Shown here: in pieces, positions 696 through 43,098 of the stretch
Layout: each line of letters begins with the position of its first letter
Position numbering within the stretch: position 1 is the stretch's first letter
NCBI GenBank assembly: GCA_963807605.1
Contig: CAWECG010000003.1
Span: 544,001-608,000 of the forward strand
Length of the DNA stretch: 64,000 nucleotides
Origin: Candidatus Bathyarchaeota archaeon
GTDB taxonomy: Archaea > Thermoproteota > Bathyarchaeia > 40CM-2-53-6 > RBG-13-38-9
Direction of reading: 5' to 3'
Made by a program: the position numbers and the translations under genes
Notes under the pieces: generated by a model
Told to the model about the DNA's origin: nothing
The model's input: the letters and a program-made list of their open reading frames with translations, nothing else
Databases searched by the model: none

Positions 696-782
696 GCACG
701 TCCTCAGATGGCGAATGTATCTGCTAAATCAAGAGAGGTCTGAGAGGTTTTCCACTTCCTGGAGAGAAATTATTGTGTGTGC

Positions 783-977
783 ACACCGCAGGGATACTAC
801 AACATAGAGAGAATGCTTGAAGCAGTCATAAGAAAAGGAGCTAAAGTGAAGATCTGCGGCAGCTGCATAGGTGCTCGCGGCATAGAAGAACTGAAGCTGA
901 TCGAGGGATTAGAGGCAAGCAACAGGGACGAGCTAGCCAACCGGGTGGTGGAGTCCGACAAGGTACTTACATTCTAG
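783..977 (+). pseudogene. C-terminal half of a DsrE/YchN-family protein
   Basis: TPQGYYNIERML..CGSC..ARG..SDKVLTF; N-half missing, starts at RY run TGTGTGTGCACAC (774-786). Confidence 0.7.
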
Positions 978-979
978 GG

Positions 980-1501
980 ATGCGGCTAGATACAATGGAT
1001 CAGGCAAGATTATGCGAGATAGTTTCAAGAAAATTTGAGGGAGCCAATAAACTCGTAGATATTGGTTGCGGAGACGGCTACCTAGTTAGCTGTCTAGCCA
1101 AGAAGCTAGGCAGAAAGATAGTGGGTTTAGACACGGCACTAGAAGGATTCGTCAGGGCGCACAATCAATGCAGAAGATTTGGTGTCTGTGACCTAATCGA
1201 ATGCGTGAAAGGAGACGCTCACGATATGAAGATGTTCGGAAGCAACGAGTTTGACGCCGTGTTATTGGCCTACTCGTTACATCATATGGCCCATCCTGAT
1301 GCGGTATTGAAGGAAGCAAAACGCATTCTGAGACCTAAGGGAAAGATTGTAGTCGTAGAGTATGTTGTTAGGAAGAATAGAAGCAAATGCCACAGATTCG
1401 TGAAGAAAGAGATCAATGACATGATGAAGAGCAGTGGATTCAGAAATACGTTTACACGAGAACTAGAGGAAGCCCTTGTTCTGGCTGAAGCTGAGAAATA
1501 G
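980..1501 (+). CDS. Class I SAM-dependent methyltransferase
   Basis: VDIGCGDG, FDAV, SLHH, RILRPKG motifs. Confidence 0.85.
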   Translation: MRLDTMDQARLCEIVSRKFEGANKLVDIGCGDGYLVSCLAKKLGRKIVGLDTALEGFVRAHNQCRRFGVCDLIECVKGDAHDMKMFGSNEFDAVLLAYSLHHMAHPDAVLKEAKRILRPKGKIVVVEYVVRKNRSKCHRFVKKEINDMMKSSGFRNTFTRELEEALVLAEAEK

Positions 1502-1517
1502 GCCGTGAACATGCCTA

Positions 1518-2138
1518 TTGCAGGATCAAAACGGTGTCAGTGACGTGGAGAAGTTTGTCAGATTCTACGATTCTGAATTTGGCAAGAAGATAACACAGTT
1601 TGAAGCAGAATACATATACAAAGGGTTGAGAAACTGCCGCAAAATTTTGGATGTGGGCTGCGGCATAGGATCCATCGAATCTAATCTTCCACAACTAGAC
1701 ATCATCGGACTAGACAATTCTGAGAACATGCTTAACGTGGCCAAAAAGAGAAATAAGGCCGAATATGCTCAGGGGGATGCAGCGAAGCTTGGATTCAAGA
1801 GCGCCTCCTTTGACGCCGTTCTTTACGTCACAACCCTAGAATTCCTTCACAGCTATCAAAAGGGTATTGAAGAAGCGCATAGAATCTTGAAAACGGGCGG
1901 TGGACTGTTGGCGATGATTCTGAATCCAATATCAAGATATTTCACGAAGCATATTGGTCAAGAGAACTCTTACTTTCTTAAAGTAAGACACAGGGATCCA
2001 AAGGCGATTCAAAGCTATATATCAAATCTCTTCACGGTGAAGACAGAATACCTCTTGGGAATCGACAAGGAAAACATATTCGATTCAAATAATCCAGAAA
2101 CAGCAAGCCTGTATGTTATTAAAGGAAAGAGAAAATGA
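1518..2138 (+). CDS. Class I SAM-dependent methyltransferase
   Basis: ILDVGCGIG, GLDNS, SFDAV, RILKTGG motifs. Confidence 0.85.
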   Translation: MQDQNGVSDVEKFVRFYDSEFGKKITQFEAEYIYKGLRNCRKILDVGCGIGSIESNLPQLDIIGLDNSENMLNVAKKRNKAEYAQGDAAKLGFKSASFDAVLYVTTLEFLHSYQKGIEEAHRILKTGGGLLAMILNPISRYFTKHIGQENSYFLKVRHRDPKAIQSYISNLFTVKTEYLLGIDKENIFDSNNPETASLYVIKGKRK

Positions 2139-2218
2139 CCCTATCAGAGCTAATGGAAGATTTTGGCGCACGCTAGATTCGGCATTCTACTTTAGAAAAT
2201 GCATAGAGAGGACCCTTT

Positions 2219-2557
2219 TTGTTCAGACATGATTCTCTTAGAAAGAGAGCTGAGCAAGTGCTCGGCCTAAAATCGGGCGCAAAGGAGGATCAGGTAACGA
2301 GAGCGTTTCGGCGACTTGCTCTAAAATACCACCCTGATAGATGCATGATGGATTCATGCAACAAAAAGATGCAGCTACTCGTCCAAGCTCGCGATCTCCT
2401 AATGAAGAAGCAATACGATGACTTCGACAATTACAAGCTACTGGAAGACGATGAGTTACTGCTTTCCATCCTTCCAAATGGAATTAAGTTAGACCCGCTT
2501 GCACCTACCTACGAAGAGTGGCACAAGAAACACTTCTATGGTTTTGGAGGAATATAG
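2219..2557 (+). CDS. Small J-domain (DnaJ-like) protein
   Basis: VLGL..AFRRLALKYHPDR (HPD motif). Confidence 0.8.
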   Translation: MFRHDSLRKRAEQVLGLKSGAKEDQVTRAFRRLALKYHPDRCMMDSCNKKMQLLVQARDLLMKKQYDDFDNYKLLEDDELLLSILPNGIKLDPLAPTYEEWHKKHFYGFGGI

Positions 2558-3015
2558 CTCGTGATCCTGATTTCTACATTAATCTCATGGAGGGAAACTG
2601 ATCCCTCTTACAGCAACCGTATTCGCGGACAGCTTTAGGTCGAGCCTAGCAATTCTTTTTGCCTTTTCTAAGACCTCAACCTCATAGGGCAAAGACCGGG
2701 TTAGTTGAACTCTTGCGGTATCGAGGAAAACCACTACGGCAGGGTAGGCTTGCCAAGCTGTCACATCTGAATCGCACGACTTGAATTTCTCTTGTTGGTT
2801 TGTTGGAATGGGATAGTCAAGGCAGTGTAGGGCAGTACACGTTACTCTGCATACTGTCTTACTCGGATTTTGCAGAGCAACTTTATCGTTGGAAAAATGA
2901 AATGTCTATACGTACTAGGGCATCTTTTAGAACCGTCGTACTCGCACAGGATTGTTACGCCGTTACATGTCTGACGGTTTAAATAGATCAATTAGTCATC
3001 AGCTGGACGAGGAAC

Positions 3016-3749: not shown

Positions 3750-4148
3750 TCACTTGATCTTTTTTATCCGGTGAGCTGGCATCTCCCTATATGTGGCGAC
3801 GCACCTTCGCCTTCCAGCAGGGATTCTCGTAGACGACCATTTCAAAAGCGGCAGAATAGCCGTCCTCAACTTGGCGCCGTCTATTGTTAGGGAGTATTCC
3901 ACCCTCGGAGGTATCTCTGCAAAGCTTTCCCTTTTGATCAATCCTTCTCTTTGAAGCTCTTTGAGCGTGTCCGCGAGGGTTGTTGGGCTAATGCCTTTCA
4001 ATTGATCTATTAGCTGGTTGAACCTAAGCTTGCTACTATTTCCAATAGCGTTAATCAAAAGCAGAGACCACTTCTTACCTATCGTGTCTATGATGCCCTC
4101 CAGGGGGCAGAGGCAGACCTGCTCTGTTTCATTACTTCGTTCGCACAT
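3750..4148 (-). CDS. HxlR-family winged-helix regulator
   Basis: CP..IGKKWSLL..LRFNQL..ISP.TL..LKEL..EIPPRVEYSLT; probable start MCERS. Confidence 0.9.
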   Translation of the reverse strand: MCERSNETEQVCLCPLEGIIDTIGKKWSLLLINAIGNSSKLRFNQLIDQLKGISPTTLADTLKELQREGLIKRESFAEIPPRVEYSLTIDGAKLRTAILPLLKWSSTRIPAGRRRCVATYREMPAHRIKKIK

Positions 4149-5446: not shown

Positions 5447-5450
5447 AAAA

Positions 5451-6374: not shown

Positions 6375-6384
6375 AACCGCGCGC

Positions 6385-6722: not shown

Positions 6723-6734
6723 AGATGGAAGAGA

Positions 6735-7724
6735 ATGGAAAACGCGATCGAAGTCAATGATCTTACAAAGCGCTATGGCGAAGTAATTGCCGTAGACGGT
6801 CTAAGCTTCGAGATAGCAAGAGGTGAAATCTTTGGACTACTTGGACCAAACGGCGCTGGAAAGACAACAACTATCCGCATGCTAACAGGCTTGTCAAGAC
6901 CGACATTCGGAAGTGCTAGGATCGCCGGTCGAGACTGTGTCCGAGAAAGCCTAGCGGTTAAGCAGAGGATAGGAGTAGTTTCAGAGTTGAGCAACCTATA
7001 CAATGAGATGTCCGCATGGGACAACCTGATGTTCATAGGTGAACTCTACGGCGTCGACAAGAATACAAGAACTGAGCGAGCCAAGCAACTCCTTGAACTC
7101 TTCCAACTTTACGACAGAAGAAATGCTCACATGATCGAGTATTCCAAAGGAATGAAACGCAGGGTTCGCATTGCCACCGCACTCATCCACCGTCCGGAGG
7201 TCCTCTTTCTCGATGAACCTACCAGCGGCTTAGACGTCGAAAGCTCCCGGCTTATCCGTTCACTTGTTAGAAGCCTGAATGAGGAAGGCATGACCGTTTT
7301 TCTAACAACTCACTACATCGACGAGGCTGACCAGCTCTGCGACCGGGTTGCCATAATAAAACAAGGGAAGATCATCGCGGAAGATTCGCCTGAAAGACTA
7401 AAGTCATCGCTACAAGAAGACTATATCATTGAGATTGCGTTCGACAGAATCGACTCAGAGGTGGAAACACTTCTTCAAACCGACCCAGCTGTGAAAGATG
7501 TCGAAAAACACGGAGACAAGTATCATGTTCATACAACAACTCCCGACAGCATAATCAAGAAACTGGTCCAGTACGCTGCATCGAATAATCTTGGGATAAT
7601 TAGTATAGATACGAAACAGCCGAGCCTCGAAGATGTTTTTGTAAAGTACACCGGGCTTGATGCTGTTCAGCTTGAGAGGATGGAGCTGCTTCGAGCCGTC
7701 AAGTTAGGTGGTCAACGTGCCTAA
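6735..7724 (+). CDS. ABC-2 exporter ATP-binding subunit (DrrA-like)
   Basis: GPNGAGKTT, YSKGM, LFLDEPT. Confidence 0.92.
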   Translation: MENAIEVNDLTKRYGEVIAVDGLSFEIARGEIFGLLGPNGAGKTTTIRMLTGLSRPTFGSARIAGRDCVRESLAVKQRIGVVSELSNLYNEMSAWDNLMFIGELYGVDKNTRTERAKQLLELFQLYDRRNAHMIEYSKGMKRRVRIATALIHRPEVLFLDEPTSGLDVESSRLIRSLVRSLNEEGMTVFLTTHYIDEADQLCDRVAIIKQGKIIAEDSPERLKSSLQEDYIIEIAFDRIDSEVETLLQTDPAVKDVEKHGDKYHVHTTTPDSIIKKLVQYAASNNLGIISIDTKQPSLEDVFVKYTGLDAVQLERMELLRAVKLGGQRA

Positions 7725-8481
7725 CTCCTTCGCAGGACATCCAACCAAAGTCTTCTCTGACTTTGCGGCCAAGGGAGTCTGCATGGCGAAGAAAGACGCA
7801 AAGTGCTACTACTTCAAACCCCAGATAGCCGGATTCGGCATACTGATACCTGCCTTCATCTACCTCTCCTTCTCACTTGGACGCGAAATTCCACCTAATC
7901 TTTTGATTCCCGGTCTTGTCGGAATGGTCTCTCTTTTCGGCGCTTCCTCTATTGAGGCGATATCCATCCCGATTGAGAAGCAGACCGGCACCTATGAGCT
8001 TCTTCAAACTGCTCCAGTCTCAACGGCGAATGTGATCTTCGGCAAGTCCTTGGCAGGTTCAGCCTTTGGCATCCTGCTCTCACTTGTAACAGCATTCGGG
8101 GCGGCCATCTTGACTGGAGGCGCCATAAACAATCTCCTCCTGTTTGTGATTGCGTTGATTGCGGGGGCTTTTGCTTTCAGTGCTCTTGGAATGTTGGTTG
8201 CTTCCGCTGCGAAGGATATGCCGACCGCCAACATGGCGCTTACCGCTTTGAGGCTGCCTATGGTCTTTATCAGCGGAGTCTTCATACCTACACAAGATCT
8301 GCCGATTCAACTGCGCTTCGTCTCCTATCTGACACCGCTTACCTACATGGTTGATGCGTTAAGAGCGGCTATGAGTGGCCCAGACATTACTTTTGCTGTA
8401 GATGTGGCAGCTCTGCTTGTGTGGGTCGTCGTATTGCAAATGCTAGCAGTCATCGTGTTGAACAAGAAGATGGAATTTTAG
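7708..8481 (+). CDS. ABC-2 exporter permease
   Basis: TM segments, EKQTGT, FISGVFIP..PLTYMVDALR. Confidence 0.9.
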   Translation: MVNVPNSFAGHPTKVFSDFAAKGVCMAKKDAKCYYFKPQIAGFGILIPAFIYLSFSLGREIPPNLLIPGLVGMVSLFGASSIEAISIPIEKQTGTYELLQTAPVSTANVIFGKSLAGSAFGILLSLVTAFGAAILTGGAINNLLLFVIALIAGAFAFSALGMLVASAAKDMPTANMALTALRLPMVFISGVFIPTQDLPIQLRFVSYLTPLTYMVDALRAAMSGPDITFAVDVAALLVWVVVLQMLAVIVLNKKMEF

Positions 8482-8687
8482 TCGAATCGGGGGCGTTTTC
8501 CAGCGCGCGCTAGACTGGTATACATTTCATAGATACTCAAATCCCTTCATCTGAGCGTCGTGGTAAGTGTCTATGTTTACGCCCGCATGCGCGTGTCCCT
8601 ACGCACGGGTGAAAAGCCTAAAAGACTGGAACTTGGGAGGGTAATGCTGGGTCTTAAAAAACGCCATTTTTTGGTGGAGGTCTAGGG

Positions 8688-10691: not shown

Positions 10692-10838
10692 GAGAAAGCC
10701 GAAAACCTCAAGAACTGTAGCCTCTACCTCGCGCGCTACAGAATAACCGAAACGACGACGTCGAGGTGGGTTCAGACTAGAATTGAACTATACAGTGAAA
10801 AATCAATATAGTTCGTCATCCTGAGTAATCCGAATAAG

Positions 10839-11820: not shown

Positions 11821-11871
11821 TTTGCCAGACATGAATTAGTACTCTAGTTGAATGGTTCAATTTTAGATGCT

Positions 11872-11942
11872 CTCACCAGTTATGGCACACACACAATTCT
11901 AACGTTCAAATTACGACCCTCTCACCAGCTATGGCACACACA
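11872..11942 (+). repeat. Two direct copies of CTCACCAG(C/T)TATGGCACACACA
   Basis: 11872-11894 and 11921-11942; inverted copies at 40965 and 42600. Confidence 0.85.
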
Positions 11943-12096
11943 ATTCCTCCCCTCATGTTGGGGAAAGAATTCCCCAAACCCCTTCTTTATTTTACGGATG
12001 GCTCGCTACGCTCGCTCAGAGATACACACAGCGACGCGCGCTAGATACTCAAATCTTTATGAACGTCTAAAACAAGCCAAAATCTGAGGGATTGTA

Positions 12097-13543: not shown

Positions 13544-13918
13544 CTAGCCCTTAGGTCTTGACGACAGTGCAAGTGCACCGCCAATGATGCCGAGTATCGC
13601 CCCAACAAGGAAGCCGCTCATAGATCCTCCGAAGAGGCTAACGATGGAGAAGACTAGTATCATAGTTCCCCACATGGTACAGCACGCGCGCATGCCGTGC
13701 ATAGCTTCTCCAGGACGAATCTTAAGCATGATGGCGGAAATCAACACGATTATTCCCGATATTAATCCGAGAACCCTCGTTCCTGCCATTGCGGCGTAAG
13801 CTAGCTTCCCCATCGTCCCGATCCCCCACATCGTTGTATAGATGTTGCCCAGAATAATCAAGATCCCCGCAACTAGTGAGATGATAAATGCTGTTGTCAG
13901 CTTCTCAGTTTCTGACAT
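13544..13918 (-). CDS. Small 4-TM membrane protein (DUF4064-like)
   Basis: AFIISLVAGILI..GFLVGAILGIIGGALAL. Confidence 0.75.
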   Translation of the reverse strand: MSETEKLTTAFIISLVAGILIILGNIYTTMWGIGTMGKLAYAAMAGTRVLGLISGIIVLISAIMLKIRPGEAMHGMRACCTMWGTMILVFSIVSLFGGSMSGFLVGAILGIIGGALALSSRPKG

Positions 13919-14357: not shown

Positions 14358-14610
14358 AGCCCGCGTGCGTGATTGCTTTTTTGTCTTCAATTCTGAGATC
14401 CACAATTTACTAACAGCAGCGGATCATTTGCAAGTTGCTAGTCAAGAATTAGTTCGTCTCTTTCTTGGAAAGAAATACGATTCAGTTTAACCGCTGGGAC
14501 CATTATTCGGGTTAGATCTGGTAGCAAAGTGGGGTAAATTCTGGAAATTCCCTAAATAGGCTGTGATGCCATGCAGCTAAAAGAACACAGGATGTTGCTA
14601 GCGCGCGCTT

Positions 14611-14694: not shown

Positions 14695-14773
14695 TTAACT
14701 AGAGGCGTGATATCCAATCAGAAGCACGCTGGCTTGCTTTCGTTCTAAGGTCACGCGCGCGAACCTTATGGAA

Positions 14774-15133: not shown

Positions 15134-15172
15134 TATGCGGATCCTTCTAAAGTGATTGCAGCTACGCGCGCG

Positions 15173-15341
15173 TAACCGTTGAAGAGTAGGAGTAATAAGG
15201 CTTCTCATCATCCTTGGTGACGCCTAAGCCTATCAACACATCATCAGCATCAAGGAACCTGTAGAGTTCCTCACAGCTTTCGACCCGCCTCAAACGTTTA
15301 ACAAGCTCAGCCCTGAACATGCCAAGCATGACTGGGTATGG
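15173..15341 (-). pseudogene. Transposase N-terminal relic (DUF772, IS5/IS1182-like)
   Basis: PYPVMLGMFRAELVKRLRRVES.EELYRFL..LG..PY..SST, cut at CGCGCGCG (15165-15172). Confidence 0.5.
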
Positions 15342-15548
15342 GGCTCATCGATCTTCTCATCAAAAACTAGTATACGTCTACATGTTAACCAATAGAATAT
15401 AGCAAGAAGCTCGACCGTATGAATCAGTACTGCCTAGTTAGTGTCGAGAATGGTCTGATAACCCTAAAGACGATACGCAAGTCAGGTTTAACACGCGCGC
15501 GTTCGCGCCCATTCATGTCCTAGTGAGTCTCACTTTTCTTAAAGACAT

Positions 15549-18158: not shown

Positions 18159-18492
18159 TATTTTGAATTGGTAAAGTACATAGCGCAAGCTTAAATTGAG
18201 ATGCGTGTTGGCTAACTCCCGTCCGAGCAGTCTGTTGTTTTGAGCAGTGCGTGCAGGGGATGCCGACGACCCCTCGCTCATGATTTCGCGATAGTAAAAT
18301 AGTCATATATGCCCTGTACAAATACATCAAGCCCTAGGCAGACTCACACATCGACGACAACTGTTACTAAGTTCCATCTCTTTTCTTCCACAACTATTTT
18401 CTGACCTCGATCCTAATTACACATCAACAGAGTGCGCTAGAATCGATTTGGTGATGAGGCGCTCACACGCGCGCGAAACGAACGAAAGGACA

Positions 18493-18559
18493 TGGTGGAC
18501 TGGTCGGGGTCCGCAGCGTTTTCGCTTCTAGAATGGGGTACGAGATTCACTCAGGTTCA
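18493..18559 (-). repeat. tRNA-Ala-like 3' end plus conserved arm, copy 2
   Basis: 52 of 67 nt identical, without gaps, to 34340-34406. Confidence 0.8.
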
Positions 18560-18566
18560 TACGCGC

Positions 18567-23917: not shown

Positions 23918-24049
23918 AGTTACGCGCGCACAAGAGGTAACCATGCACACCTCTGAAGGAATTAGCTACAGGGTGTCTCGTCGAAGCTTGCTGGCTAGAG
24001 CGTACGCACATTTATTCTTGTAAGAAGAGTACTCTTGACAAGGGGCGAA

Positions 24050-28410: not shown

Positions 28411-28527
28411 TCTACATGCGCGCTTTGGTTCTAGCCTGATCTTGATATCCTAAGAACTTCTAGGCAAATAGGTGATATTGCCGCAACAACGTTAGGTAAG
28501 CAACAAGAGCACTCATCTCTAGAGGTG

Positions 28528-28622
28528 ATGAGACTAGTGATTAGCTTGAGATGTCCCATTGGCGAATGTGTCTTTGAGATAGATGTTCACACCTTCCAAG
28601 AAGCAATCCAAAAGGCTAGAGA
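28528..28622 (+). pseudogene. 5' fragment of a DUF1059-like gene, cut at GCGCGCGC (28623-28630)
   Basis: MRLVISLRCPIGECVFEIDVHTFQEAIQKAR, paralog of 37459-37641. Confidence 0.85.
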
Positions 28623-28741
28623 GCGCGCGCTGCAAAAGTTCTATTGGGGATCACTATAGGCTATTCATAGAAGCATAACCAAGGGCCAAAGCAACTCGTA
28701 AAAGCGTTGAGAACGATGATCTCTTTTTGAAGGCGTGATAA

Positions 28742-29653
28742 GTGATAGGCCAAGACAGGACGATAGAACTTGTGAGTATGTCAAGGCAGCCTATGCCTTC
28801 AGTCGAGAAGCTGAGGGTGACTGTTCTTGTCGAAGATTCAGTGACTATGGAGAAGCCTGATCTGGTAGCCAAACATGGCTTGTCTTTTCTAATTGAAACA
28901 AGCTTCGCAGGCACCAATTCTAGAATTCTTGTCGATGCTGGCCCTCCACCTGACATAGCATTACAGAACGCGGACATAATGGGCGTTAGCTTGCAAAAAG
29001 TAGATGCAATATTCATCAGCCATGGACACTACGACCATGCAGGAGGACTGCTAGAGATTCTGAAGAGCATAAACAAACCGATACCTGTGCTCGCTCACCC
29101 AAGAATCTTCAGCCCCAAGTTTGCTCATAAACCAAATCTGAAGTACATCGGGCTAGGATACGATCCATCATCCATCACGAACACAAGAGGAGCGTTGATC
29201 CTAGCGCGAAATCCGGTCAAAATAATGGATGGTGTAACAACAAGTGGTGAAGTTGCGAGAGAGACCATTTTCGAGAAAGCCGAAGGATTATGGACCGTGG
29301 AGAATGAATGTTTCATGCAGGACGCTGTCATCGACGATCAAGCCCTAATTGTCAATGTCAGTGGCAAAGGTCTTGTTGTTGTAACGGGCTGTGCACACTC
29401 GGGAATCATAAATACGGTTAAACATGTCCAGAAGACAACTGGAATAAACAATGTCCACGCCATCCTAGGAGGCTTACATCTAGCCAATGCGGACGACAAG
29501 AGAGTTCAAACAAGCATAGACGAACTTGTAAGAAACAAGGTTGGGTCTATCTATCCTTGTCACTGCACAGGTTCCAAAGCGATCCATCAACTTCAAGAAA
29601 CCCTAGGATACCGTTGCAAACCTATTCATACTGGAGACATAATCGAACTCTGA
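28742..29653 (+). CDS. MBL-fold metallo-hydrolase
   Basis: HGLS, SHGHYDH, GCAHSG, GGLH, PCHCTG. Confidence 0.9.
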   Translation: MIGQDRTIELVSMSRQPMPSVEKLRVTVLVEDSVTMEKPDLVAKHGLSFLIETSFAGTNSRILVDAGPPPDIALQNADIMGVSLQKVDAIFISHGHYDHAGGLLEILKSINKPIPVLAHPRIFSPKFAHKPNLKYIGLGYDPSSITNTRGALILARNPVKIMDGVTTSGEVARETIFEKAEGLWTVENECFMQDAVIDDQALIVNVSGKGLVVVTGCAHSGIINTVKHVQKTTGINNVHAILGGLHLANADDKRVQTSIDELVRNKVGSIYPCHCTGSKAIHQLQETLGYRCKPIHTGDIIEL

Positions 29654-29719
29654 CTCTGTACACCATAAAGATCAGTCGTATGCGATTAGTTCCGTTAAAT
29701 TGCAAATGAGCGTGATGAA

Positions 29720-30535
29720 GTGCCCGGCCAAATCATTAGGGAATTGTTGGCACATATAGAAAAGAAGATCCCCGACATAGACAACCTGAAAGTATGTGAT
29801 GTCCGCATTGGACTCGGTTACACGGGCGTAAAGTTGAGTACGGGCCAAGCTGGCGTGTGTCACACCTTAGCAGATGAACCAGTTTGTTGCCAGAAAATCG
29901 ACCGTGCCGGAACATTCTCTGGGAGCTTGGCTCTGGAAATCGCTAGATTGGCAGATTCCTGGAAGCTTGGAGAGGCTGTGGTTGGCGTCGCAACCATAAA
30001 CGCTCTTTCCGAGATAGTGCTTCAAACAAGTACTGACAGATATTCGATTACTGAGAACGCAGACTGCACAGATCAAATAGAGATCAACAATGATGATACC
30101 GTAGCGATGGCAGGTTACATCAGACCGTTCATCCCCTTCATTAGAAGCAAAGCCAAGACACTCTACATAATGGAAAGGAATCCAAGAGTGCAGGATGAAG
30201 ACGTATTACCCGACAGTGCATGCTCAGAGATAATTCCAAAAGCTGACATAGTCATCATCACGGGAACTGCAGTCGCAAACGGAACGATAGACACCCTCCT
30301 TGAGCTGTCGAGAAATGCCAGAGAAGTCGCGGTGGTAGGCCCTACTGCAAGTATGATCCCCGACCCCTTATTCAAGCGCGGAGCAACTATGATGGGTGGA
30401 ATCAGCGTCACCAACAGTGAGAGGCTGCTGCAAGTGATATCGGAGGGCGGTGGAGTACCTCAATTCAAGAACGCTTGTAGACAGATGGTGATCAGACCGA
30501 GAAAGGGACGTGCTCTGAATTCACGTGTTAAGTGA
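29720..30535 (+). CDS. DUF364 Rossmann-like (putative heavy-metal chelation) protein
   Basis: GVATINAL, IITGT..NGT, VGPTAS. Confidence 0.85.
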   Translation: MPGQIIRELLAHIEKKIPDIDNLKVCDVRIGLGYTGVKLSTGQAGVCHTLADEPVCCQKIDRAGTFSGSLALEIARLADSWKLGEAVVGVATINALSEIVLQTSTDRYSITENADCTDQIEINNDDTVAMAGYIRPFIPFIRSKAKTLYIMERNPRVQDEDVLPDSACSEIIPKADIVIITGTAVANGTIDTLLELSRNAREVAVVGPTASMIPDPLFKRGATMMGGISVTNSERLLQVISEGGGVPQFKNACRQMVIRPRKGRALNSRVK

Positions 30536-30553
30536 AGCCGAGGATATCAATCA

Positions 30554-30833
30554 ATGTCTCAGAACGAAGATATTTTGGCCTTCGGCCCTGTTCCATCGAG
30601 GCGCCTAGGGCGAAGCCTGGGCATAAACAATATCCCAGCAAAGGTATGCACCTATTCTTGCATCTACTGCCAATTGGTAGAACAACAAGGCTTCGGATTG
30701 ACAGACAACGATTTCATGACCTCGAATCGATATCTGCACAGGTGGAAAAGAAGGTTAACCAATCCAGAACTGCGCAGCAACCCATAGATTATCTCACTTT
30801 CGTCCCTGATGGAGAACCAACTCTAGACGTAAA
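30554..30833 (+). pseudogene. Radical SAM N-terminal relic, frameshifted and cut at GCGCGCG (30834-30840)
   Basis: [27 protein letters not shown], then DYLTFVPDGEPTLD. Confidence 0.85.
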
Positions 30834-30885
30834 GCGCGCGAACCGCGAGTTAACATACTAGGCAACGAAAAGGAGGTGAACACGT

Positions 30886-31029
30886 TTGGCGAAAGATCCC
30901 GTATGTGGAATGAACGTAGATGAGAAGACGGCTAAGATCAAATCAGAATATAGTGGAAAGTCATACTACTTCTGCAATCTGGCATGCAAACAGACTTTTG
31001 ACAAGAATCCGAGTAAATTCACAAAGTAG
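30886..31029 (+). CDS. YHS-domain copper/metal chaperone (not in ORF track)
   Basis: MAKDPVCGMNV..YYFCNLACKQTFDKNP; GGAGGTGA RBS. Confidence 0.85.
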   Translation: MAKDPVCGMNVDEKTAKIKSEYSGKSYYFCNLACKQTFDKNPSKFTK

Positions 31030-31094
31030 AGCTGTAATGAAGCATCACTAGCTAGACAGAGCCTTCTTCTTATATGAAATGGTTATGTTAGATT

Positions 31095-33185
31095 CTAGAG
31101 TTTTGGCTTGAACCTGTTCAGCAGCAGTGAGTTGCTTACCACGGTGACAGAACTGAATGCCATTGCTCCGGCCGCTAGGAAAGGAAGAACATTGTAGATC
31201 TGTGGACCGAAGAAGGGAACCAAGCCTCCTGCAGCAACAGGAATCAGGCCGATGTTGTAGAAGAACGCCCAAAAGAGGTTCTGCTTTATCTTAGCAACAG
31301 TCTTCCGACTGAGTTCTATAGCGGTGACTACTCCTCTCAAATCATCTCTAATGAGGACTACCCCGCTAGTCTCTTTTGCTACATCTGTTCCGCTCCCAAT
31401 TGCAATTCCGAGGTCTGCTTTCGCCAATGCGGGTGCATCGTTGACACCGTCTCCCACCATTCCGACCCTGTTGCCTCCTTCTTTGAGCTTGTCGATGACC
31501 TCCACTTTCTGGTGTGGCAAGACATTAGCGATAACCTTCTGTATCCCGAGCTTCTTCGCAATAGAGTTGGCTGTACGCTCATTATCTCCCGTCAACATGA
31601 CGACCTCGATTCCCATATCTCTGAGTTGTTGAATTGCTTCAACCGAATACTCCTTCAGTGTATCAGCCACCGCAATTAGGCCGACGAGGCGTTCGTCTGA
31701 GGCCTCCATCATCACTGTTTTTCCGTCTTCCTCCAATCGTCTAATCTTTTTTTCAGCAGTCTCGAAGATGATTCCATTTTCCGTCATCAGTGTTCTGTTG
31801 CCCAGGAGAACTCTGTGTCCGGAAATCTCGGCTAAGACTCCTTTCCCAGGGATTGCTTCGAAAGACTCAGCTTCCTCGATTAGCAGTTGTTTCTCTGTGG
31901 CTGCTCTTACTATGGCTTCGCCAAGTGGGTGCTCTGATCCTTTCTCAGCAACGGCGGCCAGCCGCAGAATCTCATCTTCGGGCAGGTCACTTGTTACAGC
32001 TATGTCTGTGACTGATGGTTGGCCTTTTGTCAGAGTTCCAGTCTTGTCGAAGACAAGCGTTTTCACGCGGTGTGCCATCTCAAGGTTCTCTCCTCCTTTG
32101 AAGAGTACTCCGCTTTCGGCTGCTTTCCCTGTTCCAACCATAAGTGCCGCGGGAGTGGCTATTCCCAATGCGCAGGGACATGCGATGACAATGACTGAGA
32201 CAAAGGATAGAAGCGCAAAGTTCAGTCCTATTCTTCCAACGAAATACCAACCTAGGGCAGACGTTGTAGCGATGATGATTACTGCGGGAACAAAATATGC
32301 CGCTATCTGATCTGCTATTCGTTGAATTGGAGCTCTTCCCGCCTGAGCCTCTTCGACCATTTTCACTATATGGGCTAGGACTGTATCCTGACCTATCTTT
32401 TCGGCCCTGATCTTAACCATTCCTGCTTTGTTTGTTGTTGCACCTATGACTTCATCGCCTGTTTTTCTTTCAACTGGCATGCTTTCTCCGGTGATCATTG
32501 ACTCGTCCACCGATGTGTGCCCAGTTACGACTACTGCGTCTACTGGAATCCTCTCTCCGGGTCTTACTGCCAGTTCATCTCCGACAGAGACTTGCTCAAC
32601 CGGAATCTCCGTCTCTTGCCCATTCTTGACCAAGCGGGCCATGGTTGGTTGAAGATCCATAAGACGTCTGACCGCTTCTGACGCCCTGCTCTTGGTGAGG
32701 TGCTCAAGATATCGGCCCATCAGGATGAGAGTTATGATTGCAGCTGACGTGTCGAAATAAGGCATTACCTCCTGTATTGGCAGTATTCTCGGAAAGAAGA
32801 CGACTACAGTGCTGTAGGCCCATGCAGCCGTAGTTCCCAGAGCGATCAGCGTATCCATGTTGCCCATACGTGCCTTGATCGAGTGGTACAAGCCACGGTA
32901 GAACCTGAAACCTATGATGAACTGTATTGGCGTAGTGAGGACGAAAAGAACCAAGAGTCGGACTTGCATAGGCAAAATCTGAAGGTATGTTAGAGCGATC
33001 ACAGGCACTGTGAGGACTACCGAAATGGCCAGAGATATCTTCAGCCGTTTAATCTCACGTTCCGGAGCAATAAACTCGTCAAGACATGATTTGCTGCAGA
33101 AATAGTAGGTTGTTCCACGAACCACTGCCTTAAGTTCCGCAGTTTTTTCATCCACATACATTCCACAGATTGGATCTTTGGCCAT
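31095..33185 (-). CDS. copA: Cu+-exporting P1B ATPase with N-terminal YHS domain
   Basis: TGES, CPCALG, DKTGT, SEHP, GDGVND, YN..P, MAFSS. Confidence 0.93.
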   Translation of the reverse strand: MAKDPICGMYVDEKTAELKAVVRGTTYYFCSKSCLDEFIAPEREIKRLKISLAISVVLTVPVIALTYLQILPMQVRLLVLFVLTTPIQFIIGFRFYRGLYHSIKARMGNMDTLIALGTTAAWAYSTVVVFFPRILPIQEVMPYFDTSAAIITLILMGRYLEHLTKSRASEAVRRLMDLQPTMARLVKNGQETEIPVEQVSVGDELAVRPGERIPVDAVVVTGHTSVDESMITGESMPVERKTGDEVIGATTNKAGMVKIRAEKIGQDTVLAHIVKMVEEAQAGRAPIQRIADQIAAYFVPAVIIIATTSALGWYFVGRIGLNFALLSFVSVIVIACPCALGIATPAALMVGTGKAAESGVLFKGGENLEMAHRVKTLVFDKTGTLTKGQPSVTDIAVTSDLPEDEILRLAAVAEKGSEHPLGEAIVRAATEKQLLIEEAESFEAIPGKGVLAEISGHRVLLGNRTLMTENGIIFETAEKKIRRLEEDGKTVMMEASDERLVGLIAVADTLKEYSVEAIQQLRDMGIEVVMLTGDNERTANSIAKKLGIQKVIANVLPHQKVEVIDKLKEGGNRVGMVGDGVNDAPALAKADLGIAIGSGTDVAKETSGVVLIRDDLRGVVTAIELSRKTVAKIKQNLFWAFFYNIGLIPVAAGGLVPFFGPQIYNVLPFLAAGAMAFSSVTVVSNSLLLNRFKPKL

Positions 33186-33280
33186 TATCGATCCCTTAAA
33201 TCATCGAAGGCAAGAAAAGATCAGCTATATAAAAAGCAAATCTTCTGCGCACTCGATATTCACATCAATAAGGATCGAGC

Positions 33281-33456
33281 TCCCGCGGGCCCGCCATCAA
33301 GTGTAGAACAGCCTAATTTCCCGAACCTGCAGGTTTCGCCGCTAGTGATGGGAATCCCGCCCGGTTCACTACTCAAACAGTCGCTAACATAGATCAAGGC
33401 AGAATTTCCCGAAACTGGAAGATTCACCCCTAGCGGTGTGAGTCCCGGCGGCCGCA
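33281..33456 (+). repeat. Three tandem tRNA-3'-end fragments; the last two share a 45-bp upstream arm
   Basis: TCCCGCGGGCCCGCCA (33281), AATCCCGCCCGGTTCACTA (33353), AGTCCCGGCGGCCGCA (33441); 33315-33359 versus 33403-33447 is 35/45 identical. Confidence 0.75.
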
Positions 33457-33601
33457 CTTCTTGATGGAATTCAGCGCGCGCACTTTCGTTTCTCTATCCT
33501 CTGACTGATTACCCATATAAATGACCTGCGCGTCGGGCGCCCAAGAGTCAAATCCTTGACGTTCACATTCCGCAGGTATCTACGCGTACACACTACCCAA
33601 A

Positions 33602-34165
33602 ATGTTTTTAGAGATTGCTAATGCTACCCTTGGCCAAACAATGCGAATCCGAAAGGGTCTGGTGACATATTTGGTGAAATCAAGCAAAGAAGACTTGATG
33701 AAACGTGCTTATGATTTGGGTTTCAACTATACCAAGGATTATGGAAGTTGCTCACAATGTGCCTTTGCAGCTGTGAGCGAAGTCTTGGGAGGTCGAAGCC
33801 GTGAGATCTTTAAGACGATGGACGGTCTAGCTGGAGGATTGGTCCGTGCAGGAGATGGCACATGTGGCGCCTTGTCAGGCGGAGTGGCAGCGATAAGCCA
33901 AAGGTATGGCAGGGCAGATTTCTCGAATCTTGGAGAAAGAGAGAAGGGCATGGTACTGGGCAAGAAGCTCCATGACCGGTTCATAGAAGAGTTTGGAAGC
34001 GCCATCTGCAAAGATGTCCAGACGAAAATTATTGGAAGGTCTTTCAACCTCTGGGACCCCAAGGAACATGAAGAATTCAACAAGGCAAAGGGAGACAAGT
34101 GCCAAAATGTTGTGGGGAAAACTGCAAAGTGGACTGTCGAAATCCTATTGAATGAAAAAAAATAG
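33602..34165 (+). CDS. C-GCAxxG-C-C family redox protein (paralog)
   Basis: Close paralog of 16077-16619. Confidence 0.88.
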   Translation: MFLEIANATLGQTMRIRKGLVTYLVKSSKEDLMKRAYDLGFNYTKDYGSCSQCAFAAVSEVLGGRSREIFKTMDGLAGGLVRAGDGTCGALSGGVAAISQRYGRADFSNLGEREKGMVLGKKLHDRFIEEFGSAICKDVQTKIIGRSFNLWDPKEHEEFNKAKGDKCQNVVGKTAKWTVEILLNEKK

Positions 34166-34339
34166 TATAGAGGTTTGGTTGTTTAACTCAGCAAGCGCAA
34201 GTAGCACGGCTGAGGGCGCACAACTCGAAAGGGCTTAAGCAATTAGCGCCTAAACACCTAAGCCAATAGCACCGACAGGAAAACGTACCCAATCGAAAAC
34301 TACACAGGAAACTAATTTTCGACACCCTAAGAGTTATTT

Positions 34340-34413
34340 TGGTGGACCGGGCGGGATCCGCAACTTTTTCGGTGCTAGAATTGGTTTCAAAATTCGCGCG
34401 GGTTCAGGCCTCG
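34340..34413 (-). repeat. tRNA-Ala-like 3' end plus conserved arm, copy 3
   Basis: Minus strand ends ATCCCGCCCGGTCCACCA. Confidence 0.8.
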
Positions 34414-34533
34414 CAGGGTTCGGACACGTCGACCTTTGGGATCCGGAAATCTTCTCTATGAAACGGTTCTTGATTGGGTCGTTAAGTGAACGCGCGCGTA
34501 TACTTTTTCATCCTGAGTTCATTCTAAATCCGA

Positions 34534-34692
34534 TTAATGAAGTTGGGAAAGTGCTCCTTTCATCCACAATTTGTAGCGGTCAACACAGTCCTTATCATGA
34601 AAAGCATATTCTTCTCCGTTAATGGTCTCAAAGTAAGGCTCACCGATAATGATATCATCACAAAGGGCACATATCTTTTCCTTCACCATCAT
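34534..34692 (-). CDS. Small TRASH/YHS-like metal-binding protein
   Basis: CALC..GEEYAF...C. Confidence 0.7.
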   Translation of the reverse strand: MMVKEKICALCDDIIIGEPYFETINGEEYAFHDKDCVDRYKLWMKGALSQLH

Positions 34693-35048
34693 CTCACCTC
34701 CTATCAATTGTTCCATCATCACATACGCCATGATAGAGTAATATACTTAACGTTTGTTTGTAATACCTTATTCTAAGCATAATGGCGAACAACATAACTT
34801 TGTCCTACAGTTTGTGCTTTGAACAATTAGAATTTTCCTCACTTCAGTGAAAGTCGATGCGGCACAAGCGTATATGAACTTCAATCGTCCTATGCTCATC
34901 CAAGGAAATATATTACGTCCGGATCGTATCTTGCGCCTGAAGTGGACCTCTCTTCGATGAAGCGCGCGCCGGTGTAGGCCTATTGAATTCATATTCAAAT
35001 AGGCAAAACTTTTAACCTCAAAATTGTAGAGATTGTTTCGGTGAGGAC

Positions 35049-35465
35049 ATGCCCAAGTTTAAGGCTACAGCCAAATGGGTCGGAAATGTTCGTTCAATAG
35101 TGGACAATTCCAGAACACACAGTGTGGTTTGTGATCTAACAACCCCTCAGGGTGGAGACGATACGGGGCCAACAGCCAACGAATTGGCTATAATGGCTTT
35201 AGCAGATTGCGCCGTGACAATATTCGCCGATGTCTGTAAACAGAGCAAAATTGAACTCGTTAAAGTGGAGGCTGTCGCGGAGGCTGAAAAACCTCCTGAC
35301 TCGCCCAAGCTGAGTGGGGTAACCATTAAGACTACAGTTACCGCAAAGGCAAGAAAGGAACTATTAGAAGCTTCTTGGAGGAGAACCGAAGCAAACTGCC
35401 CAGTACTATCCATATTCAGGGAGCCAATACCACTAAAGGTCGAATTCGAAGTCATTCCTGAATAA
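35049..35465 (+). CDS. OsmC-family protein
   Basis: GGDDTGPTA.EL..ALADC..CPV. Confidence 0.88.
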   Translation: MPKFKATAKWVGNVRSIVDNSRTHSVVCDLTTPQGGDDTGPTANELAIMALADCAVTIFADVCKQSKIELVKVEAVAEAEKPPDSPKLSGVTIKTTVTAKARKELLEASWRRTEANCPVLSIFREPIPLKVEFEVIPE

Positions 35466-35711
35466 TTCTACGAGACGACACGTACCTAGGACTCAACCCT
35501 AGAACAACATCTGAATCATTTATGAAAAATGGTGTTGACAACAAAAGGTGAAACACAAGGGCGTCATACCTTTGACGCCATATCTCCGTAACATTTGCGC
35601 CCGCGTATGATGTGCTTTCCTTCCTTGCTGCAGGTACTATGACCTTCAGTTCGGTTGCTGCGATAAGTAATTCGCTCTTACTTGATTCAAACGAAGCCTT
35701 GAATTAGAAGT

Positions 35712-36017
35712 TTGCAGGCGAGATTTGTGAGCGAGAATAACAAAGAGAATAAGGATACTTTTGAGAAGATTGCAAGAGAGTCGAAAAAAGCTAAAGAGTC
35801 TCGCCTCATCGTCTCTGTGACTGGAATTAGCTGCGCCACCTGCACTGTCGCTATAGAGAAACAGGTGAAAAAGATCGAGGGCGTTGGCGCTGTTAAGACG
35901 GCGATAATGCTGAACAAGGTTTTCATAGATTATGACCCGACTCTCATCGACTCAGCTACAATCAGAAAAGCAATAGACAAGACTGGTTACAAAAGCTACA
36001 TGAGCGTGGAGGAATAA
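35712..36017 (+). CDS. HMA (CopZ-like) metal chaperone
   Basis: GISCATC..IE..GV..I.KTGY. Confidence 0.85.
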   Translation: MQARFVSENNKENKDTFEKIARESKKAKESRLIVSVTGISCATCTVAIEKQVKKIEGVGAVKTAIMLNKVFIDYDPTLIDSATIRKAIDKTGYKSYMSVEE

Positions 36018-36033
36018 TGAGCGCCCGTAACGC

Positions 36034-36615
36034 GTGCGCATGCGAGACATTGAAAAATTGACCGCCTCGAAATACCCTTATAATGAAAAGGAGAGGAGGA
36101 GATGGCAGAATCCTGAAGCCATACTAGGAGAAATAGGCTTACGATCCGGTCTAACATTCATTGACATAGGTTGCGGCGATGGCTTTTTCACCATCCCAGC
36201 CGCTAAGATCGTGGGCGAAACAGGGAGAGTCTATGGGTTAGACTCGGATGATGAAGCAATAGATCTTTTGAAGAAAAAGGCCACTGGAGAACGCCTGACA
36301 AATCTAGATTTGAAACTGGGAAAAGCTGAAGAGACAGTCCTATGTGAGGCATGCGCGGACGTGGTCTTCTTCGGTACAGTTCTTCACGACTTTAGAGATC
36401 CAGCCAAGGTATTAATGAATGCGAAGAAAATGGTCAAATCTGACGGACGGCTGATAGACTTAGACTGGAAAAAGGAGTCGATGAAGTTGGGACCTCCACT
36501 TCGAATAAGGTTCAGCCAAGAAGAAGCAATACGACTTATTGAATCGACAGGCCTAAAGATAGAGGAAGTGAAGGAAAACGGCCCCTACCACTACTTGATT
36601 GTGGCCAAATCATAA
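36034..36615 (+). CDS. Class I SAM-dependent methyltransferase
   Basis: IDIGCGDG, VLHD, DWKK..GPP. Confidence 0.88.
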   Translation: MRMRDIEKLTASKYPYNEKERRRWQNPEAILGEIGLRSGLTFIDIGCGDGFFTIPAAKIVGETGRVYGLDSDDEAIDLLKKKATGERLTNLDLKLGKAEETVLCEACADVVFFGTVLHDFRDPAKVLMNAKKMVKSDGRLIDLDWKKESMKLGPPLRIRFSQEEAIRLIESTGLKIEEVKENGPYHYLIVAKS

Positions 36616-36765
36616 CTTGTGCTGGGAGGACTCATGGTCTCCAATCAAATTGGATTCGTTTACGTGCGCTTCGGCGTAGTTGGTTAGTCATTTCATATGG
36701 TTAATCAACTGGGGATAGAGTCGAGGAAGGATGCGCGCCACAGCCCTGAGATGTAGTGAAACAGA

Positions 36766-40157: not shown

Positions 40158-40315
40158 GCATTCTATGGTAGCACGCGCTAGAAGATAGGATACACAGAAG
40201 AAGAACTCAAGTTCCTGAAGGAGCGAATCTAGGTTTCGGTTGTGGTAATCCCGTCGATCTCGCTTTTCTAAGAGAGGGTCAGACTGTTAGCGCGCGCTGC
40301 GCGTATCCTCTGAAA

Positions 40316-40675: not shown

Positions 40676-40842
40676 TTTGTGGATCCCCTTAAGATGACTT
40701 ACAGTTGCATGTAGTTACAATACAACTATTCTGCATTTGAATTTAGTGAGCGCTGGAACCTCAGCCGCTTTCTCAGGTCTATCCTATCACCCGCGTGCTA
40801 GTCAAAAATTAGCGTAATCTAGAATATAACTATGAGCGTGCG

Positions 40843-40963
40843 TTATATGGCATCATTGTCCCACCACTTACATCGTATCAGGCCCTCTTCGTATTAGGGT
40901 TCTTAGCATTATCCACTTTGGTTCTAATTCTTTTCCAGGTTTCACGTCTATAGAAGATTCGGA
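40843..40963 (+). pseudogene. C-terminal relic of a second H+-ATPase, starting at GCGTGCG (40836)
   Basis: LYGIIVPPLTSYQALFVLGFLAL versus IYGLIIPPLKSYEVLFILGFSAL of 37719-40157. Confidence 0.8.
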
Positions 40964-40964
40964 T

Positions 40965-40987
40965 GTGTGTGTGCCTTAGCTGGTGAG
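40965..40987 (-). repeat. 23-bp repeat GTGTGTGTGCCTTAGCTGGTGAG
   Basis: Matches 42600-42622 and the reverse complement of 11872/11921. Confidence 0.8.
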
Positions 40988-41094
40988 CACACACACTAAC
41001 ATAATCTAACGGTTCAAATCTGGAGGCTCTCCAGCTATGGCGACGACGACGAACGGTTCACTACGCTCACCAAGGGACAGGACACGGGATTTTG

Positions 41095-41400
41095 CTATTG
41101 AGAGTTGTTGCCTTCCCGGTCTTCATCTTCCAGAACTTCTATAACCTTTTCGACAATCTTCGGTCTTGCGTGTATTCTGAATTCGAAGTGGGCTGGCGGA
41201 AAATTATGTTGAGTGATGGTTCCATTCACCGAATAGTCTTGCTCTTTCTCTGGAAATCTTACGTAGACAGGTGAGAATTTCCGTAATACAAGATCGTTTC
41301 CCAATATATCTGCCCAAGCTAACCGACACAGTCTCCTCCCCCCCAACAGAGGCAGATGCCGTGAAAACTCAATAAGCTTTTGCTCAGTCGTGCAGAGCAA
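41095..41400 (-). CDS. Hypothetical protein downstream of the MFS gene
   Basis: ORF overlapping the MFS stop; no motif recognised. Confidence 0.4.
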   Translation of the reverse strand: MLCTTEQKLIEFSRHLPLLGGRRLCRLAWADILGNDLVLRKFSPVYVRFPEKEQDYSVNGTITQHNFPPAHFEFRIHARPKIVEKVIEVLEDEDREGNNSQ

Positions 41401-42580
41401 GAGTAACAGGTAATAATAGGATGAATGCTCCTCCGGCCAGAAGAAAGGTATTCTTGATGTTGATCAGCTCTATCAATCTGCCAGCCAACAGGGGTCCGAT
41501 GGTATAGCCTAGGTCTTTGAAGGTAGCTATGGCTCCTGTCATAACGACTTTGTCCTTACGCATGATATCAGACATTCTTGAATACAATGCGATGAAAATC
41601 ATCGTGTAACTTATCGTGAAAGCCGTCACGACTGCTATTATGTAGTAGAAGTTGCTTGACAATGGAATCAAGATCCCTGTCAGTGTAGTCAACGCGATCG
41701 CTGACGTCAGCGTCTTGCGGATTCCGTGACGATCTATTAGGTTCCCCATTGGCAATTCAAGGCCGACGGCAGGTAACAAGGCGATTGTGAGTATAACGCC
41801 AATCAGAGGAATAGAGATTCCTTCATGGTTAAGAAAAATCGAAAGGAAAGAATAGTAAACGTTGATCAGGGCATAGAACACAATTATTAGGAATGTGGTC
41901 TTTATGAATCGGTTATTGCGCATGTAGCCTGACAGTTTAACCATTTGAACTTTCAACGGTGCTCTCTCAGGTTTAGGCGTCTCCTTTAGGTAGAGTGAAA
42001 CTACGACAAATGCGGTCAAGCTTGTCAAGCTGAGCACATAGAATGGCAGGAAGAAAGAAAGAATGGAGATAAAGCCTCCTACAAAGGGTGATAATGCTGA
42101 AGCGAGATCATTCATGCTGGAGAAGAATCCGACCTCCTTTCCTTTGGCACGTTTGTCAGTGTACCCGAGAATATAGGCCCATGAAGTCAGCCAGAGGAAA
42201 GAAGATGCAATTCCCCTAGCGATGCTCACCAACAGTAGCAGGGGAAAGCTGTTAGCCATGGGATAGAACAGTGCGAGGCCAGAGTAGACAAGCAACACAA
42301 TCTGCAGAACCCGTTTGATATTCATCCTAACTTCTATAATGCCGAAGGGAATATTGAGAAAGATCCCTGCCATAGTTGTAAGTGAAAGGACAAGGCCGGT
42401 CAAGAACGAGTTTCCAGTCACATTGTTTACGTATATCGAGAATACTGGAGATGTCACGCCCCAACCGAAAGTGTAAATGAAGAACGCAACTGAGATGGGG
42501 AGGAATACTCTCCGGAAACTCCTGATGTGACGTAGGTCGCTGAACTCTTTGAACATGTCGACTACATTCAGCGCGAGCAT
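41384..42580 (-). CDS. MFS transporter
   Basis: About 12 TM segments, G.LIDRHG.RK, GYTIGPLLAG. Confidence 0.88.
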   Translation of the reverse strand: MLALNVVDMFKEFSDLRHIRSFRRVFLPISVAFFIYTFGWGVTSPVFSIYVNNVTGNSFLTGLVLSLTTMAGIFLNIPFGIIEVRMNIKRVLQIVLLVYSGLALFYPMANSFPLLLLVSIARGIASSFLWLTSWAYILGYTDKRAKGKEVGFFSSMNDLASALSPFVGGFISILSFFLPFYVLSLTSLTAFVVVSLYLKETPKPERAPLKVQMVKLSGYMRNNRFIKTTFLIIVFYALINVYYSFLSIFLNHEGISIPLIGVILTIALLPAVGLELPMGNLIDRHGIRKTLTSAIALTTLTGILIPLSSNFYYIIAVVTAFTISYTMIFIALYSRMSDIMRKDKVVMTGAIATFKDLGYTIGPLLAGRLIELINIKNTFLLAGGAFILLLPVTLALHD

Positions 42581-42599
42581 TAAAGAATTGCTTGGTTAC

Positions 42600-42622
42600 G
42601 TGTGTGTGGCCTAGCTGGTGAG
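42600..42622 (-). repeat. 23-bp repeat GTGTGTGTGGCCTAGCTGGTGAG
   Basis: Direct repeat with 40965-40987, flanking the MFS module. Confidence 0.8.
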
Positions 42623-42785
42623 GGGGATATAGATAACTGGCTGTTTGGTGTGGTCATGTGGATACGAGTTTTTGACGTGGATATCCACGCGGACATTTCT
42701 GGGATGAAGTGGGTATATTAGCGTGCACCTAACTGTTATTTATTCCACTTCGTACAAATCAATACTAGAAGATTAAGGCATTACT

Positions 42786-43076
42786 ATGAAGGCACTTCTC
42801 GACACAAACATTGTAATACATCGTGAAACAAGTATTCCTTTACATAAAGGCATTGGACATCTCTTTCGTTGGATTGACAATCTAAACTATATGAAATGTA
42901 TCCATCAAGTAACTGTTGATGAAATAAACAAACTGAAGAATGAAGAAAAACTAAGGATTTTCTATTAAATTACAGAGCTACAACATTCTCCCTACAACAG
43001 CGCCTCTAAATCCTTCAGTACATTCGATCTCCAAGAAACACGATTTCAACGAGAAAGATGTCAATGACACCAAGCC
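42786..43076 (+). pseudogene. PIN-domain protein N-terminal relic
   Basis: MKALLDTNIVIHRE; frameshift near 42965; continues KLQSYNIL..DVNDT; ends at CGTGTATAC. Confidence 0.7.
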
Positions 43077-43098
43077 TCGTGTATACTATGGTTTTGCT

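Follow-up and report, generated by a model that had tools for sequence, protein, structure and literature searches.

We analysed a 64,000-nucleotide stretch of the genome of a Candidatus Bathyarchaeota archaeon of sediment or peat (assembly GCA_963807605.1, contig CAWECG010000003.1, positions 544,001 to 608,000; hereafter the window), in which short uninterrupted runs of alternating C and G, here called cores, lie in spacers and at the broken ends of genes. An initial annotation had listed 17 such runs of 7-8 nt in spacers or at gene breakpoints and one within a coding sequence (CDS), and had read them as the joints of a ~43-kb cassette-shuffling island served by a neighbouring integrase and tRNA gene. 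The genome holding the window (G000) comprises 2.65 Mb in 5 contigs (C1-C5), and it was compared with 61 related Bathyarchaeia genomes, including G001 from the same genus; these genomes are mostly incomplete, so that absence from one of them means not found.

CG runs in the window and across the lineage

The window contains 18 pure CG runs of at least 7 nt, namely the 17 listed previously and the one at 13685; every coordinate proved correct and none had been missed at this length. Under a third-order Markov model trained on the segment, positions 1-43086 were expected to hold 3.8 runs, with a maximum of 10 in 200 simulations, and they hold 18. The 17.5-kb syntenic core region (46.5-64 kb) was free of runs of 7 nt or more, as had been stated, and carries a single CG 6-mer at 57886. 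The framing as a special ~43-kb island was not borne out, however, since 6 of 59 bins of 43 kb genome-wide contain at least 18 cores, this stretch being one of them.

Across G000 there are 447 CG runs of at least 7 nt. Runs of 6, 7, 8, 9, and 10 nt number 321, 127, 198, 74, and 36, respectively, with a peak at 8 among those of 7 nt or more, and 12-mers are rare (n = 4); AT and AG runs, unlike CG runs, fall off geometrically with length. The 8-mer GCGCGCGC occurs genome-wide at 17-fold above third-order Markov expectation. When coding and non-coding DNA were separated with our own simple gene caller, CG 8-mers occurred at 310/Mb in non-coding versus 10.5/Mb in coding sequence (~30-fold), whereas CG 4-mers were equally frequent in both. 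The flanks of cores carry a T, then an A, then weakly a purine, with no information beyond 2-3 nt, and the motif takes the palindromic form (T)A-GCGCGCGC-T(A). The third base after the core-TA was a purine in 98 of 152 instances, yielding TAG or TAA stops, a bias that may reflect either the template sequence or selection for terminating broken genes.

Core abundance was patchy among relatives. Thirteen of the 61 related genomes hold 16-119 copies of AGCGCGCGCT and the others 0-10, and even within one genus (g16) the number ranged from 0 to 83, G052 having 83 copies and G046, G049, and G031 having 0-1. The 14-mer form is present in the 13 core-rich genomes, which span three families, and as a single copy among the 48 others. 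Decayed core copies are transition-biased, consistent with birth followed by neutral decay. No closely related strain of G000 was found (best protein identity 82%), and in open-access papers we found no description of this motif in Bathyarchaeia or of a fixed palindromic filler in archaea. One full 14-mer core also occurs in a 2.5-kb circular contig from a viral collection (L343:1-2671) with two open reading frames (ORFs) without a Pfam match. The motif resembles a linker, and an artefact of assembly or of library preparation, for instance chimeric joins made through a palindromic linker, was accordingly weighed; it is extremely improbable given that the motif was found in 13 independently assembled genomes and follows taxonomy, that decayed copies exist and cores are common to diverged paralogs, and that insertion sequence (IS) elements sit inside cores and a core is present in an independent peat contig.

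Genes broken at cores and cores newly written at joints

Several cores in the window coincide with the point at which a gene relic begins or ends (cores carry no strand):

6378-6384, no strand: core where an HxlR relic breaks off (codon 25 of 132); its intact paralog (3750-4148) is coreless there
8503-8510, no strand: core abutted by a gene relic
14601-14608, no strand: core joining DNA homologous to C3:304543 (coreless there) to an ABC-permease tail
28623-28630, no strand: core where a DUF1059 relic breaks off (codon 31 of 60); donors have a partial CG run there
30834-30840, no strand: core between a radical SAM relic (broken at residue 92 of 319) and a 2.38-kb segment
40290-40297, no strand: core where a methyltransferase relic breaks off (residue 82 of 276)
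40836-40843, no strand: degenerate core; the tail relic of a P-type ATPase starts here

The ABC-permease tail at 14601 corresponds to residues 231-254 of the gene at 7708-8481. The 2.38-kb segment, which starts at 30838, is 99.9% identical to C3:309950, which is coreless, and in one relative the ATPase-DUF364-radical SAM operon continues unbroken past the point of the 30834 break. Thus, the breaks proposed earlier for HxlR, DUF1059, radical SAM, and the ABC permease were all recovered, as was the H+-ATPase relic, which proved to be a P-type ATPase tail at a degenerate core; the relics at 8503 and 40290 are additional to those proposed. Other parts of that proposal fared less well: the transposase relic said to end precisely at 15165 is indeed present but stops 17-20 nt short of the core, position 774 is a TG run, 18561 is the end of a tRNA-like fragment, neither of these nor 43078 is a CG core, and the APC permease and PIN relics could not be confirmed.

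The association extends beyond the window. Among 142 ends of low-copy paralog pairs (at least 88% identity), 24 carried a perfect core, against a null of 0.8%, and in 22 of the 24 the core was in one copy only. These breakpoints support the view that cores mark rearrangement joints.

More directly, cores were found for which both flanks map to one intact coreless locus, with 6, 6, 17, 46, 252, and 1,422 bp replaced, and a further two-sided case lies in frame in an ArsC-like gene. At C3:74808 a 7-bp sequence has taken the place of 4 bp, between flanks that are 93-99% identical; the product is the sole one of 16 aligned proteins with an extra residue and, because the 15 homologs are without it, the direction of change is fixed as a gain of the core. 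The window itself supplies the core-free side of another such pair:

40895-40901, no strand: core-free allele; in the paralog C1:353532 a 10-bp core replaces these 6 bases

The donors corresponding to C3:74808, C1:353532, and C3:253659 were seedless, that is, they contain no prior target word. At C5:32935 a perfect 46-bp tandem duplication has its two copies joined by a core. Direct repeats of at least 7 bp flanked cores in 5 instances versus ~0.6 expected; their lengths vary, for which reason a fixed-length target duplication was rejected. Inverted repeats flanking cores showed no excess over the null, and snap-back synthesis was rejected on that ground. Overall, 6-1,422 bp were lost and 7-46 bp duplicated at core joints.

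The bases next to the core were informative as well. Among 62 joints with a core-free donor, an A preceded the core in 49; this A was missing from the donor in 18 of the 62, and in 14 of these 18 the donor ended in T, often CT (p about 1e-5), which is the pattern expected if joints use 1-3 nt of microhomology to a (C)TA-GCGC partner. Cores therefore arise between coreless ends at deletions, at tandem duplications, and at joins of unrelated DNA, and the filler brings with it a flanking A or TA, often missing from the donor, and is entered by 1-3 nt of microhomology.

An explanation that dispenses with a dedicated filler is that CG runs grew by slippage from GCGC seeds and are fragile (Z-DNA or hairpin), breaking at their edges and being rejoined to arbitrary DNA. 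Slippage and fragility would fit one-sided joins, divergences past a shared core, and donors with partial CG runs, as at 28623; they cannot, however, yield two-sided cores where no seed existed, or place a core between two perfect tandem copies, and they predict neither the peak at 8 with A...T flanks, given that other dinucleotide runs are geometric, nor the range of 0 to 83 copies within one genus. We consider this explanation unlikely. A nuclease cutting GCGC or CGCG followed by end-joining, one of the alternatives named in the initial annotation, fails because several donor ends have no such site. Our preferred interpretation, which we regard as probable, is that the cores are a fixed self-complementary filler laid down by an end-joining route, and their genome-wide spread speaks for a repair route that has not been described, not for a cassette system of the integron kind.

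Several observations weigh against this interpretation. The expectation that breakpoints would coincide with cores held for the 24 paralog ends noted above, but the other 118 of 142 (83%) have no perfect core, and the protein-level relic test gave 43 cases against 17-29 under the null, only a ~2-fold difference. Among unselected adjacent direct repeats, 2 of 137 had a core-like spacer versus 1.2 expected; the core route must therefore be a minority one, with most junctions arising otherwise. A two-step route, in which a core-flanked piece is inserted and then lost between its cores, may fit any single event, and the events are few, not all independent, and mostly between paralogs within one genome. 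Furthermore, no enzyme tracking core abundance was found in profile searches of the genomes, PriS occurs in nearly all genomes while the core trait is patchy, and no conserved template locus emerged, the flanks of the 14-mer differing between genomes (1-2 loci per genome examined).

Exchange at existing cores and mobile elements within them

Cores can also be reused. About 11 non-IS pairs have a core in common and diverge directly past it, and a 400-bp segment is bounded by cores in both of its copies (C3:169056 and C4:12110). For an 8.2-kb block of the window (28415-36662), an empty allele exists at C3:843415 and another in a peat contig, the peat contigs of relatives being short and of low depth. 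The features concerned, the remaining CG runs, and the integrase and tRNA gene are as follows:

10730-10736, no strand: core in a spacer
12035-12041, no strand: core common to C1:520809, the copies diverging right past it (reuse)
13685-13691, no strand: run within a CDS; the homolog differs by substitutions only, and this is probably a chance run
14754-14761, no strand: core common to the G001 homolog, divergent past it
15165-15172, no strand: core 17-20 nt from an IS1182-like relic
15189-15411, minus strand: relic of an IS1182/IS5-like element, family B
15494-15501, no strand: core adjoining DNA homologous to C3:841708
18468-18475, no strand: core common to C1:254610 (95% over 176 bp), divergent past it (reuse)
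23923-23929, no strand: core directly past a stop codon
26141-26147, no strand: core in a spacer
28415-28423, no strand: degenerate core at the left edge of the 8.2-kb block
33474-33481, no strand: core where a related peat contig joins via TT to 33571, with 89 bp skipped
34491-34498, no strand: core in a spacer
34962-34969, no strand: core in a spacer
36662-36669, no strand: degenerate core at the right edge of the 8.2-kb block
45608-46351, minus strand: integrase relic, the N-terminal part of a tRNA-adjacent tyrosine integrase, matching residues 10-199 of a 422-aa paralog; it plays no role in the mechanism
46381-46497, minus strand: intron-containing tRNA gene, read by eye as Val-GAC, at the start of the syntenic core region

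The shared-core divergences, the 400-bp segment, and the 8.2-kb block with its empty allele are what the recombinase first proposed, exchanging cassettes core by core in the manner of an integron, would produce. Set against it, most partners are coreless, there are no arms beyond 2-3 nt and no inverted-repeat excess, genes are cut mid-sequence, and the birth of cores is left unexplained. The integrase is a relic whose ORF (45608-46351) gave no PF00589 match, and it has no spatial link to cores: the neighbourhoods of 17 integrase loci hold 32% of cores in 32% of the genome, with no enrichment. Searches for an att duplicate of the tRNA end, and for att arms or hairpins around cores, found none. 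We thus judge such a recombinase quite improbable. What survives of the cassette-shuffling claim is that cores mark joints, that genes break at them, and that some are reused; a site-specific system tied to the integrase and tRNA gene is unsupported because the partner DNA is coreless at 22 of 24 breakpoints and in the 62 joints. Likewise, modules do lie on mixed strands, as had been reported, but palindromic-core cassette exchange as the cause did not stand. Reuse of cores needs short homology only, not a dedicated recombinase. In addition, tRNA-like fragments or pseudo-tRNAs adjoin cores in the window (18486-18563 and 34335-34421) and in several copies in G001 and G002.

Two IS1182/IS5-like families, B and C (DDE_Tnp_1 + DUF772), bear a closer relation to cores, all 14 of their full-length copies lying in CG runs. 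In our reading, these copies duplicated a 2-bp CG in the middle of a run that was already there, in most cases one of 8 bp. It could be argued that cores are the footprints or tips of such elements, with insertion at CG through C...G termini and imprecise excision or adjacent deletion leaving (GC)4. Consistent with this, every full-length B or C copy sits in a CG run, the end of family B reads CTAG-CGCGC, resembling the preferred flank, and homologs in core-poor G008, G012, and G018 are likewise flanked by CG runs. The copies, however, represent a 2-bp CG (or 4-bp) duplication in a run already 6-10 bp long, and because these target runs were already mostly 8 bp, footprints should be 12-mers, which are the rare class counted above (n = 4). 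New cores also arose at donors without a CG seed, and the transposase does not follow core abundance: it was found in core-poor G008 and G012 and not in core-rich G003, G004, G007, G009, G010, and G013, a comparison weakened by the incompleteness of metagenome-assembled genomes (MAGs), which often lose IS copies. Derivation of cores from IS tips is therefore rather unlikely.

Other repetitive elements were noted. A distant IS1182-like copy in G018 (L021:1327-2541) has T(GC)4A on either side, the 8-mers of this kind in that genome numbering only 5, and an IS in a CG run of G008 (L020:1460-2625) is flanked by the 7-bp direct repeat CTAGACT, as if a core had been inserted first with duplication. 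G000 carries a 1,079-bp IS5-like element (C1:414440-415518 plus 7 other full-length copies) that has 8-bp random target duplications and is probably active, and two TnpB-like families with about 25-30 matches each. Another junction word is dispersed in 69 exact copies over the genome and consists of CTCACCAGCTA and 3 further nt (about 14 bp); in the window it occurs at 11865-11935, 40963-41052, and 42600-42720, and next to it lie CA/TG, CGA or CAC runs, or else 90-bp relics that begin with GGGGATATAG. The CTCACCAGCTA/GGGGATATAG junctions presumably resemble casposon ends.

A candidate route for the filler and its relation to known systems

In the filler model, a polymerase or primase would extend each 3' end on a short self-complementary template or oligonucleotide of the form (Y)TA-GCGCGCGC-TA(R), or in the phase TA-CGCGCGCG-TA. 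A tail made in this way could anneal to any other such tail, or to a core already in place, which would make unrelated ends joinable in either orientation, and slips in register would give cores of 7-10 nt. Having become numerous, cores would take on secondary roles, offering short homology for exchange and target sites for IS1182-like elements, and they would be found in spacers and accessory regions because breaking a gene is selected against, without any targeting.

The best candidate for the enzyme is the replicative primase PriSL, or some lineage-specific protein acting with it, by elimination of others together with published Sulfolobus biochemistry: PriSL anneals ends via 2-4 GC pairs and mediates microhomology-mediated end joining (MMEJ) in S. 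islandicus (PMC12019639). Ku and LigD occur in G000, were not found in core-rich G001-G004, G007, G009, G010, G013, G050, and G052, and are intact in several core-poor genomes; a Ku/LigD filler was rejected given that this distribution does not track cores. An NHEJ (non-homologous end joining) cluster of Ku, the LigD polymerase, and a split ligase lies amid core-rich DNA at C1:589990-592160 (L161) in G000. PolX, an extra archaeo-eukaryotic primase (AEP), a second ligase, and a reverse transcriptase were rejected, none of them tracking core abundance (no reverse transcriptase was found in G000), as was Cas1, together with acquisition of the casposon or CRISPR type: zero-core G005 and G011 have Cas1, and none was found in G003, G004, G007, or G010; G000 encodes a 402-aa Cas1 at C3:803636. 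A protelomerase (ResT/TelK) was rejected in that the enzyme does not track cores and long palindromic arms are missing. A search of G000 for IS110 found none. Only PolB1 and PolB2, and no PolB3-type polymerase, were found in G000. PolB3 seems to be missing from most core-rich genomes; because G001, the richest, has it and several core-poor genomes do not, it offers no more than a weak lead. In G002, G003, and G015, PolB2 is divided between two ORFs.

We suggest only tentatively, and with more doubt than belief, that several Bathyarchaeia lineages possess an enzyme dedicated to tailing, which attaches one fixed self-complementary linker to broken ends of any kind. If so, the linker would be a natural universal sticky end through which fragments are joined either way round, driving accessory-gene mosaicism without a recombinase; such a universal palindromic tail would open a new way of shuffling genes and might be put to use as a tool. 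Otherwise, the core is still useful as a rearrangement marker and as an IS safe-haven site. The matter bears on the repair of double-strand breaks in archaea without Ku: a filler of constant sequence would be a novel type of junction signature that needs nothing but genomes to be read, and with it end-joining events could be dated and counted in a class that is abundant and uncultured.

Integrons consist of IntI, attI, and attC sites with folded arms. The cores resemble them in parting small accessory modules with a recurring short word and differ in having no folded attC arms, no co-orientation, genes cut internally, genome-wide dispersal, and a nearby integrase that is a relic; an integron was rejected on the grounds of mixed strands, genes cut mid-sequence, no intact IntI-type recombinase, and no attC-type arms. 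Elements of the IS1182/IS5 families target palindromes, and families B and C, which insert at the palindrome centre, use existing cores and do not explain new ones. The fillers of NHEJ and of polymerase theta-mediated end joining (TMEJ), made by TdT, Pol mu, Pol theta, or LigD, are random or copied from local flanks. Core joints behave like filler at microhomology-mediated joints, with extra bases at deletions, short tandem duplications, and translocations and with entry by microhomology; unlike NHEJ and TMEJ, one sequence recurs here genome-wide and in three families, and Ku/LigD do not track it. PriSL-dependent MMEJ in Saccharolobus (PMC12019639; polymerization across discontinuous templates, PADT, PMC3333859) is similar in being Ku-independent, in using very short GC-rich microhomology, and in leaving insertions at repaired breaks, although those insertions are mostly 1-2 bp (CC, GGC, CCG) and do not form a fixed 8-12-bp palindrome as here. 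Finally, HIP1 of cyanobacteria (GCGATCGC; PMC4390886) is likewise a highly iterated, lineage-patchy, GC-rich palindrome of 8 bp with a link to recombination and a role as insertion site for a repeat element. Its published model is a methylase-directed point change of near-matches (PMC4390886). The Bathyarchaeia motif, in contrast, is depleted 30-fold within genes, has no constant length, and takes the place of unrelated bases at breaks, and because unrelated bases are replaced, a point-change origin of the HIP1 type is disfavoured for the cores.

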